DNA of 64,000 bases from Podarcis cretensis (taxonomy: Eukaryota), in the NCBI GenBank assembly GCA_951804945.1, contig OX638150.1:52762001-52826000 (forward strand), given 5' to 3'. Of the stretch, positions 27,901 to 63,533 are shown one piece after another (position 1 is the stretch's first letter; the number at the start of each line of letters is the position of its first letter). The notes under the pieces were generated by a model that saw nothing but the letters and a program-made list of their open reading frames with translations, did no database searches and was not told the origin of the DNA. Position numbers and translations under genes: made by a program.

Positions 27901-28616
27901 ATTGGGACAAAAATGGTGTCCCTTAGCATGCTTCCAAAGATATGGTGGTGACCACTAGCCTGGATTGCTTTAAAAGCGGGTTTGGCAAATTTATGGATAA
28001 CTTTAAGCATCAATTAGTAAAATATTTATTATTAATAATAGCAGCAGCAGTAGCAGTTGTATTTTCATCCTGCTCTTCCTCCAAGGATCTCAGGGCAGCA
28101 TATATTCTCACACCCTCAATTTTATCCTCACAGCATCCCTGTGAGCTAGGTTAGACTCAAAGAAGGTGACTTGTGCAGAATTATTCAGTAAGCTTTATGC
28201 CTCCGTGGGAATTTGAAACCATCTCTCTGAGGATCTAGTCCAGAACTCTGACCACTGTGTCAAACTCCACATTCAGAAACCTACAGGTATAGGACAGTAT
28301 ACAAATTTTAATAAAAGTAATAACAATAACCTTAATAAATAATAAACAACTTATGAAAACCAAATTACTGGTGGACATATAACAAGGGAAAGCTATAGCT
28401 TTCCTGCCCTGTTTGTAGGTTTCTTGGAGGCATCTGGTTGTCCATTGCTGGCAACAGGATGCCCGGCTAGTTGGATTCTTGCTCTGCTCCAATTGAGGTT
28501 TTCTTGAGGCACAGTGGAATATTCCTTGAGGCATCTGTATTAACAGTTAGATTGCAGTAATCTACCCAGAAGACACTCTAGCAGTGTAAACTTTCTCTCT
28601 CCTTCTTTTAACACAG

Positions 28617-28844
28617 GTGGAAGTTAAGCCATATGTCTTGGATGATCAGCTGTGTGATGAATGTCAGGGGGCCCGTTGTGGTGGAAAATTCGCTCCATTT
28701 TTCTGTGCTAACGTTACCTGTCTGCAGTATTACTGTGAATATTGCTGGGCTGCTATCCATTCACGCGCTGGCAGGGAATTCCACAAGCCCCTGGTGAAAG
28801 AGGGAGGAGATCGCCCGAGACATATTTCATTCCGCTGGAATTAA
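28617..28844 (+). CDS. CPEB4: CPEB4 last coding exon, ZZ-type zinc finger (VEVKPYVLDDQLCDECQG...RPRHISFRWN*)
   Basis: acacAG|GTGGAAG; the Cys/His pattern fits the CPEB ZZ domain; the HISFRWN C-terminus is CPEB4-type; TAA at 28842-28844. Confidence 0.97.
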   Translation: MEVKPYVLDDQLCDECQGARCGGKFAPFFCANVTCLQYYCEYCWAAIHSRAGREFHKPLVKEGGDRPRHISFRWN

Positions 28845-44969: not shown

Positions 44970-45590
44970 AGTGCGGGCGCCCCGCTTCTCCTCATTGGCT
45001 CACCCCACAACTCCTCCCCGTTTGTATTCCTGACAGGAGAAAGCCCCTTATCGAAGGCTCCGCTTCCCTCGGGATGAAGGCCAGCTCTGGCCTGGGAAGG
45101 GGCAGGTCGCGGCGGGTGGTTTATGTGAACAGTTTCGGCAGCCACCGCTGCGGCAACGTGATTCGTTATGGCGGCGGCGGCGGCGGCGGCCTGAAGGACC
45201 CGGAGGCGTCCAGCCTCTCGGGCGCGTCTCTCGCTGCCGCGCTCTCGGGCAGAAGAGGCTCTCTGGCCGCAGCCGATCCCTCCGGGGAACGAGGGAGCCC
45301 CTGCTTGGGGCTGAAAGCCCCTGGCGAGGCGAGAGCGAAGGGGGTCGGGAGAGGCTGGGAGGAAGGAGGCGAGGCGAAGAGGCCTAGAGCCGAGAGGCTG
45401 GTTAGGGTCAAGCCACCGTCGTCGCCACGCGAAGGGCGGAGCAGCAAGGCGGAGGCGGCGACGGCGGCTGCGGCGGCTGCGAACTCCACAGACTCCGACG
45501 GCCAGGAAGAAGCGGGTACGAGCAGAGCGCAGGGCAGAGGCCGCGTGTCCTCGCCGGTATTGCCTCGTGGTGTTAATGGCGAGGGTTGGC
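44970..45590. promoter_or_regulatory. CpG island and promoter of C5orf47
   Basis: GC- and CpG-rich segment in an AT-rich background; reverse CCAAT box (ATTGG) at about 44994. Confidence 0.8.
45074..45515 (+). CDS. C5orf47: C5orf47 (DUF4680) homolog exon 1
   Basis: ATG in a CpG island. RVVYVNSFGSHRCGNVIRYGG resembles the N-terminal C5orf47 motif (human, as recalled, RFVYVTRFGSHQCSGVLQLGG). The donor GG|GTACGA at 45516 gives the phase 1 needed for exon 2. Position between CPEB4 and NSG2 matches known synteny. Confidence 0.8.
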
Positions 45591-60700: not shown

Positions 60701-62029
60701 ACCTTACTCATTGGTCCTGCTCTGCACCCTCCCAAGTACTTTTACCCAGCTAGAATGTGTTTATACTATGAAAACACTGCTTGCTTGTTTGCCTGGATGG
60801 AGGTGTGTATGTTTGTGTTTCATGCTCCTATGTAACAACCCAGTTTTCCCATCCAGTTTTCCCATCAAGTGTATGACCACCAGAGAACCATTACTAATCC
60901 AAGCTTTGGATGATGTTACCAGGAGGATATACCGGTACATGCATTTAAACACTTGCCTGCCACATTCACACTTTGCATTGTTAGGTGTGCACTTTAATTA
61001 AAACACACACACTTAACCGTGCTATTAAAAATGTAATGTGCAACTGAAGAGGCTCTAAGTAGGGGATGGTAAACTATATTTTTTACAACAAGCTTTAATT
61101 GCCTTTTTTCCTTTATAACATACAAATGCAATTACGAAGCATGCACTGACAAAAATGTACATGCTGTTTTTGTTCTATCTTGCATCAAGAACATTCACTC
61201 ATGGTACAAGTAGCACAGCAGAGGTACAAAGATGTTTGGTGTTTAATGTGAAAACAGCATCAGTTTTGTCAACACTATGGAATTCTCTTTTATTTGAAAT
61301 TACTTCCCACCAGAAGTGGCAAAGTGGATTGCCTCCTTTGCCACATTTTCCTCTCCAACGAAATGAATTTGGGAATCAACACGGGGGTCCAGACCAGTGG
61401 CTGAAAGTCACTGTACTAGTCACCATGTTGTTTAGTGATTAAACATAGCTGTACTTCGGGCTAGGCTGAAATGCCTGGTAGTAAGACAGATGAACAGCTG
61501 GCTAGAGCAATTAAAGTCTGAGCAGATATAGTCCTTGACATCTTCATGTCTGTGGTACTGGATATATTACTGACTTTTCCACTGGGAGGCTGAAAAGAAG
61601 CCCTTATCTTCTTCCTCATCTGATAGTCTGAGCACGTTCACTTGGAAGCAAGTCCCCAGAATTCATAGAATTAGAAGGAACTCCAAGGGTCATCAAGTCC
61701 AACCCCCTACAATGCAGAAATCTGAAAACCTGGTTTGAATCAACACGTACATTGTGCATTGTGTTGCAACTAGCCCCTTGTTCCCTTCCCGCCAGCATAC
61801 TCTTTCGAAGGTTAAACGTATTTCTTCAGATTTACCCACTGGTTCCCAGTGGCTTTTGCTTTTTATATCTGGAGGTTTGCCTCTAGTTCGCCTATTGCTC
61901 ATGATCAGCAAAATCACAAACCATCCCCCCTCTTCCCCGTTCCATTAATCCGCCAAGGACAATGCTCTCTTCCTGCCTAAGGTTCTTTGGCGACAAGGCT
62001 CGTCCTGCTAAAGCCACAGATATTGCACG

Positions 62030-62750
62030 TCGCCCTGTCTAACGCCGGAGCCGTGCCCGTTTGCAAATGACATCATACCAGGCAGACGACGATGCACGCC
62101 CACTTGTTGGAGACGCGCATGCGATGCCGGGCCAGAAACCCAGCCGCGGGTTTCTCCGAGCTGCCTGTAGGCGTCGCGGTGGGTAAATGCCTCGCTTTCC
62201 GGGCGAGCTCTTGCGGCTCCGCTCTGCAGGCGGCAGGTGGCGCCAGATCCCGCCTAGAAGCCGCCGCCCCAGCTTGCGAGCGTTTGCGTTCCCGCAGGCT
62301 CGAGCTCCTTTCTCTTGCGCACTCGGTCCCAGCTTCGCCTTCAGTAGCATTTGCAAGCAGCCGGGCTGAGGAGCGAAGCGCTGTCCGTTCAGCACCACCT
62401 AGGCGAGAGCGCGGGGGGAGAGCAGAGCCAGCCCTTTTGCGCAATCCGGACAGAACCTCCTTCTGAGAGCGCGGTGTGCCCTGCAGTAAGTAGCCAGCGC
62501 GGGAGACTGGCGGGCTCCGAGGTTGGGTGGGCTGGGCTGGGCTGGGGGTCTTGCGTGGGCGTTTGGCTCGGTCTTTCTGCTGGTGAAGCGCCCGTTCGCT
62601 TGTGCCTCTGCCGCCCAGCACTCCTGGCGCAGATTTATCAGCTCTCCGGAGAAAACGAGGGCTTTCCGATTCCCTTCCTGTTCAAAATGCAGCCCCAGAC
62701 GCAAGCGTGTCCATCCTCGAACGGCAGGCTCGGAACAGGGGGGTGGCTAA
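62030..62750 (+). promoter_or_regulatory. NSG2: CpG island, promoter and non-coding exon 1 of NSG2
   Basis: CpG-rich. CRE-like TGACATCA at 62068-62075, NRF1-type palindrome CGCATGCG at 62116-62123, RE1 half-sites at 62377-62397, and donor GCA|GTAAGT at 62486. Confidence 0.8.
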
Positions 62751-63278
62751 AATAATGGTTCTGATTAAACACCACACCCCAAGGGGTTAATGCAGCAGTC
62801 GTGATTAAAACAACAACGCACAGCGCAACACACACACGCACACACAAAAGCCCCAGGCCAGAACCACCCTTTCCTTGTGCAAGCCTCCTGGTTTCCTTGG
62901 ATTTCTAACAAAGCAGCAAGGCGGGGTTCGCTCATCTGACATGATCGTGATTTATCGCTTTGCTTATTATGTTTGGATCTAAGCAAGGGGAGGCTTGATC
63001 CGGACTCTCTTGGAAGGCGGCTCAAGAAGCATGCTTGGTAATGATGTTCTGTTGTTTTAAATGGTGCCCAGAGATTGCTACCAAATGTGAGATGCTTCCC
63101 CCGCACCCACCAGTAACTTCCTCCAGTGATCTAGCAGAGACATTCAAATGGAAAGGAAGGGGTGATAGGCAAGGTTGATGGAAGCAAGGCAAAGCAACAT
63201 CTCTCTTCCTTAATTTCCAGTTTTCTCCCTCCCTCTTAACACTAGTCGTCTCTATATGTTTTTAGGTCTGGAAAGTGA

Positions 63279-63533
<255 letters not shown>

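Follow-up and report, generated by a model that had tools for sequence, protein, structure and literature searches.

The NSG2 locus

The window, by which we mean the whole 64,000-nucleotide stretch of Podarcis cretensis DNA that was analysed, carries the first coding exon of NSG2 behind a CpG island (Table 1). The gene had been named from the letters alone, and the name is right: the reading frame at 63288-63416 belongs to the Pfam Calcyon family, and its best named matches are NSG2 of two squamates, at 98% identity. Orthology is indicated by a Calcyon-family coding exon that is closest to NSG2 together with a CPEB exon as neighbour, and the latter serves as a synteny marker on our assumption that CPEB4 lies beside NSG2. 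Contigs of another organism (run X15) break off at both ends of the exon at 63266-63416, and the loose contig end behind it resembles the next NSG2 exon, found at locus L064.

The island contains a GTAAGT splice donor that begins 88 bp after the element described below, and the element would therefore lie within a non-coding exon 1 of NSG2, with a predicted joint between 62485 and 63266 that no contig compared displays. One 57-base X15 contig, which we guess to be RNA, joins the first exon of an upstream CpG-island gene (45074-45515) to the NSG2 acceptor at 63266. This joint is likely to represent a read-through transcript, whose reading frame differs from that of the NSG2 ATG. The open reading frame of the upstream gene, which starts at 45074, had no Pfam match, and we take the gene to be C5orf47-like; PF15730 is also carried by several database NSG2 models. 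A literature search found no paper that joins NSG2, CPEB4 and C5orf47.

Table 1. Features of the NSG2 locus, in window positions, and genes found beside other divergent RE1 sites of the same genome
Feature	Position	Strand	Basis
CPEB ZZ-domain exon, synteny marker upstream of NSG2	28590..28841	+	Pfam CEBP_ZZ, E 4.5e-21
CpG island, likely NSG2 promoter	61751..63000	.	500-bp tiles: GC 0.55-0.64, CpG o/e 0.68-0.98
RE1 right half GGACAGCGCT	62377..62386	-	sequence; ZF3-5 assignment from EMSA passages of PMC8096226
1-base spacer	62387..62387	.	G in the window, T in the human oligo
RE1 left half TTCAGCACC + AC	62388..62398	+	sequence; CAGCAC core assigned to ZF7-8 from passages of PMC8096226
Right-half-like GGACAGAACC, probably outside the site	62448..62457	+	50 bp from left half
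GTAAGT splice donor, likely end of non-coding exon 1	62486..62491	+	donor word; human oligo similar
NSG2 first coding exon	63266..63416 (ATG at 63288)	+	Pfam Calcyon and database matches
KCNC1	ATG at +1035 from divergent site		Pfam/open-frame scan
KCNK3	ATG at +332 from divergent site		Pfam/open-frame scan
Kv modifier subunit	ATG at +994 from divergent site		Pfam/open-frame scan
CaMK2N	within 1.5 kb of divergent site		Pfam/open-frame scan
HRH3	within 1.5 kb of divergent site		Pfam/open-frame scan
PRLHR	within 1.5 kb; divergent site 3' of gene		Pfam/open-frame scan
bHLH gene	L036:1207-1911		gap-2 divergent word inside coding frame

A back-to-back pair of RE1 half-sites

Within the island, in a part with a GC content of 0.64 and a CpG o/e of 0.83-0.98, positions 62377-62397 read AGCGCTGTCC-G-TTCAGCACCA, as the sequence-only reading had it and as re-reading confirms. 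This is an RE1 right half on the reverse strand, one base, and an RE1 left half on the forward strand. The 9-nt left half is exact and the 10-nt right half is an accepted right-half word in the human table of PMC11025195; the two point apart with a gap of 1, where the class ranges from 0 to 49, and the element is coded identically to row 2161 of file 4 of that paper. The element is a divergent RE1 pair, a single base separating its halves, in a likely promoter island. Shuffling (100 shuffles, three mismatches allowed) gives an expectation of 0.03 such matches per window.

The other two known arrangements are not found here. Compared with the consensus quoted in the sequence-only reading, the native 21 nt match canonical RE1 (left then right half, one direction, 2-bp gap) at 14/21 positions on the better strand, so that scans with a canonical matrix miss the element, and where a canonical right half would stand, only 1 of 10 positions matches. 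For the long-gap form, which has a right half of equal orientation 7-11 bp beyond the left one, the best match to GGACAG is 4/6. A second right-half-like word had been pointed out further downstream. The word GGACAGAACC is indeed present, and its standing as part of the site finds no support: its distance from the left half is beyond every enriched same-direction spacing in the range searched (3-22), and comparison by eye saw no such word where the human oligo should have it.

Two explanations had been put forward for this arrangement, a REST site of divergent orientation or a micro-inversion that rewired a canonical RE1, and of these the first has gained support and the second has not. It is correct that, once 62388-62397 is reverse-complemented, all but one of the 21 positions agree with the consensus read on its reverse strand, and this 20/21 identity is what speaks for a lineage-specific inversion. 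However, the same result is to be had from every divergent site that has good halves and a gap of 1, and the genome holds 20 of them. The same geometry recurs 31 times at gaps of 1-2 with unrelated flanks, and the apparent human orthologue has the same form. An assembly error is opposed by contigs of two other organisms (runs X8 and X15), which span the element and for which no difference within it is listed; contigs of two further runs (X2 and X5) do not reach it. Conversion of a canonical RE1 by a recent inversion or an assembly error is therefore scarcely credible, and an inversion that predates the mammal-reptile split, though possible, is not needed. The sequence-only reading had missed the existing catalogue of this orientation class, in which the human site is listed.

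The apparent human counterpart

The start of human NSG2 is taken to lie at chr5:174.045 Mb, and this placement is backed by the layout common to a human oligo and the window. At this place, file 4 of PMC11025195 lists the peak 5:174045430-174046214 as Divergent: its right half is on minus, its left half on plus, as in the window, and the gap is 1. In human REST ChIP-seq, a check that had been called for, this peak is present in 23 of the 23 ENCODE REST sets (PMC11025195). The matching oligo in PMC9903721 holds the same element, as compared by eye, with a T as spacer and a GTAAGT donor about 90 bp later, and it has no entry in the canonical-motif table of that paper. We take the NSG2 site to be real, conserved and of REST type, and to be the reptile counterpart of the catalogued human site. 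In the lizard, the candidate site very probably binds REST.

Human divergent sites as a group show the same preference for short gaps. The 41 divergent rows of file 4 of PMC11025195 include 17 at gap 1 and 5 at gap 2. Every one of these 22 is bound in at least 18 sets, while of the 13 rows with a gap of 3 or more only 4 are (P 1e-5), in a table that was selected on ChIP peaks and in which unbound divergent sites are therefore invisible. Among the four gap-1 oligos whose sequence was read, out of the 22 rows, one (chr5:175298800) has a left half that also belongs to a canonical RE1 of score 29, and because this strong canonical site uses the same left half, the peak there needs no divergent mode. 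Neither the supplements of PMC2573930 nor the main text of PMC2883591 contain Nsg2/Hmp19, and a literature search found no paper tying HMP19 to REST and RE1.

Spacing of half-sites across the genome

The genome-wide count that had been proposed was carried out with perfect halves and gaps of 0-20. Divergent pairs number 37, of which 20 have a gap of 1, 11 a gap of 2 and 3 no gap, while the remaining three have gaps of 5, 13 and 16. The modal spacing is the one found at NSG2, and the Poisson probability of the excess is about 1e-34 at gap 1 and 6e-17 at gap 2. The control for this spacing is the gap histogram itself; genomes read backwards were not relied on, because reading backwards gains CpGs. 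Flipped pairs of perfect halves number 9 over 21 gaps and are flat. The same perfect halves give 55 canonical sites, an underestimate since canonical sites tolerate mismatches, and 13 convergent pairs, 10 of which cluster at gaps 1-4. As a positive control, the 92 same-direction pairs at gaps 3-22 include 80 at gaps 7-11, the known long-gap class.

A looser divergent pattern of 7+8 bases at gaps 0-12 had 113 matches, of which the first 30 loci were examined. Three bases of the right half that had not been searched for complete it at 14 of 15 gap-1/2 loci, at none of 6 gap-0 loci and at none of 9 loci with gaps of at least 3 (P 8e-6 for gap 1/2 against gap >=3). The left half is followed by A in 23 of 26 gap-1/2 sites, and then by C in 18 of 26; the A is found after 52 of 80 long-gap left halves, a figure counted by eye (P 0.03). 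The C at position 9 of the left half, used as a test of ZF6 engagement, did not discriminate (31/35, 80/106 and 55/77).

Several other regularities were observed. At position 9 of the left half, all 106 long-gap (7-11) sites carry C or T, whereas 7 of 77 canonical sites carry A or G, and the former sits oddly with a published statement that this position is barely conserved in long-gap sites. Same-direction pairs have a second peak at 19-21 bp (11/92; for example C3:37557325, C9:16803059 and C17:10769183), about one helical turn past the 9-10 bp peak. In about two of these pairs a half-site or a canonical site lies inside, and a repeat origin is possible, several of the spacers being alike. 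Finally, divergent sites occur in tandem, 30-55 bp apart, at three loci (C2:29773102/29773157, C14:31246089/31246141 and C11:57047830/57047860).

Origin and neighbourhood of the divergent sites

The gap-1 and gap-2 copies arose independently. Flanking sequence is common to only 2 of 406 pairs among the 29 strict loci; neither pair involves NSG2, and the sites do not behave as passengers of a repeat. Of the 26 gap-1/2 sites examined, not one is overlapped by a canonical right half (the best match is 5/10). CpG-island-like surroundings are found at 11 of 25 gap-1/2 sites, compared with 8 of 222 local tiles.

A Pfam scan of the longest open frames named a gene within 1.5 kb at 7 of 28 loci, leaving 21 unnamed (Table 1), and a second scan of 85 frames named nothing. 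The Kv modifier gene is presumably KCNS2-like, and several of the human divergent coordinates correspond, as we take them, to KCNC1, KCNK3, KCNS2 and CAMK2N2, genes found beside the reptile sites. The word in the coding frame of the bHLH gene may reflect chance or dual use, and we do not decide between these. In the mouse, ChIP-PET places REST peaks, of whichever motif class, 5' of both Kcnc1 (by 668 bp) and Kcnk3 (by 90 bp) (supplements of PMC2573930).

Does the divergent form silence?

Taken together, we consider it quite probable that the NSG2 element is a gap-1 divergent pair, one of 31 pairs at gaps of 1-2, that likely binds REST and keeps NSG2 off outside neurons, with reading by one molecule as a prediction. 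In such a scheme, REST on the divergent site would keep NSG2 off outside neurons, and on balance we think repression of NSG2 through the predicted site probable, at less strength than binding.

The main challenge comes from a reporter MPRA, in which, by the available parts of PMC9903721, 54 divergent elements had no significant repression, and from which it was concluded that only sites spaced by 8-9 bp silence. Spacers below 100 bp were pooled in the assay and 19 of the 41 human divergent rows lie outside gaps 1-2, so that dilution is possible. We guess that the element at chr16:24267322 is the divergent site of CACNG3. Its scrambled-minus-reference skews are -0.27, +1.43, -1.05, +2.38 and +1.52, none with an FDR below 0.05 (PMC9903721); its sequence being unseen, these values carry no weight here.

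The pooled MPRA result speaks for a state in which REST occupies the site without silencing, or in which the right half alone counts beside an incidental left half, and the latter draws also on passages of PMC8096226 that establish REST binding to right halves alone. Against an incidental left half stands its perfect form at 1-2 bp in 31 independent loci and its retention from squamates to human, from which we conclude that both halves and their spacing are under selection. Half-sites alone also give much weaker ChIP, with 12.7-14.1 tags as against 68.3 in the data available from PMC2532738. Occupancy without silencing, or through the right half only, is thus rather improbable.

One REST molecule or two

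In the passages of PMC8096226 that deal with recognition, ZF3-5 read the right half and ZF7-8 read the CAGCAC of the left half, and across long gaps ZF6 is modelled as flipped out, with one molecule per site. At the divergent site, one REST would place ZF3-5 on the right half and ZF7-8, reversed, on the left half, with ZF6 as a spacer or hinge that bridges the two. By geometry, at gap 1 the CAGCAC core would be inverted exactly in place, and the end at which ZF7 enters would lie 8 + gap, or 9-10 bp at gaps 1-2, from the ZF5 triplet. The corresponding span in the long-gap class would be gap + 1, or 10-11 bp at its peak in this genome (range 8-12). As the two spans are similar, a single REST with reversed ZF7-8 is favoured, though for this mode taken by itself we would put the chances at about even.

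Two REST molecules could instead cooperate, one with ZF(1-)3-5 on the right half and one with ZF6-8 on the reversed left half, with protein contact fixing the 1-2 bp. The A and C after the left half hint that ZF6 is engaged beside ZF7, which fits two molecules better, and a single spacer finger is too short for the same-direction peak at 19-21 bp. ZF1-2 support half-site binding in the relevant passages of PMC8096226, and the stoichiometry of REST is described as unsettled in those of PMC9860152. Yet the unused fingers of each molecule would lie over the half occupied by the other, long-gap sites were seen with one molecule in PMC8096226 as far as its available text goes, and the span matches that class; we hold the two-molecule arrangement to be somewhat unlikely. 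As ChIP cannot separate direct from tethered binding, another zinc-finger protein could read the composite word and tether REST. Such a protein would have to read two exact REST half-sites on opposite strands at two spacings, which makes tethering very improbable. The single, reversing REST stays our preferred reading.

Relation to known REST sites

Divergent and convergent RE1 have been catalogued since 2008 (Johnson 2008, PMC2573930) and again by Choi and Lee in 2024 (PMC11025195), in the sections of these papers at hand, and their divergent non-canonical RE1 has the same two halves pointing apart as at NSG2. The mouse sheet of PMC2573930, as far as available, has three divergent sites at spacer 1, and PMC11025195 notes in the text available that gap length varies with conformation. 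Unlike the gap-resolved count given here, both pool all spacings and, in the parts consulted, do so without conservation, mechanism or function. Long-gap RE1 (7-11 bp; Tang 2021, PMC8096226; Mouri 2022, PMC9903721) shares near-perfect halves and a narrow spacing window with the NSG2 element, and probably a similar span from ZF5 to ZF7. However, going by the available text of these papers, its halves run in the same direction, repress in MPRA and have been modelled by molecular dynamics. Canonical 21-bp RE1/NRSE (JASPAR MA0138.2) has the same half-site words and the same kind of target gene, but the left half of the NSG2 element is on the other strand. The divergent form is not treated in the portions available of PMC3431495, PMC5933800, PMC4605289, PMC2532738, PMC4055426, PMC9860152 and PMC2883591, and a search that excluded most subscription journals found no paper on gap-1/2 divergent RE1 as a class, its conservation or its mechanism.

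Implications

Rather than a local inversion, the NSG2 site is likely to represent a third mode, old and under selection, by which REST keeps neuronal genes silent. The class-level result matters more than the single site, in that dozens of divergent sites are kept at 1-2 bp, at neuronal promoters, across amniotes. This is evidence for selection on divergent sites of 1-2 bp as a class, though the form was called inactive in one functional survey; in that survey, the one functional test found, only same-direction half-sites silence, which contrasts with the divergent sites that have been kept. More tentatively, back-to-back halves at gaps of 1-2 may be a third REST silencer grammar conserved in amniotes at channel and synaptic promoters (NSG2, KCNC1, KCNK3, the Kv modifier and CaMK2N), read by one array that reverses midway, with ZF7-8 antiparallel to ZF3-5 and ZF6 as hinge, and hidden in the reporter assay by the pooling of spacers; we offer this full version as a possibility that we would not yet back. 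Should a single REST molecule read both halves, its C2H2 array would turn back along the DNA, which would be an unusual mode of recognition, and models of RE1 variant effects would overlook sites at neuronal channel genes.
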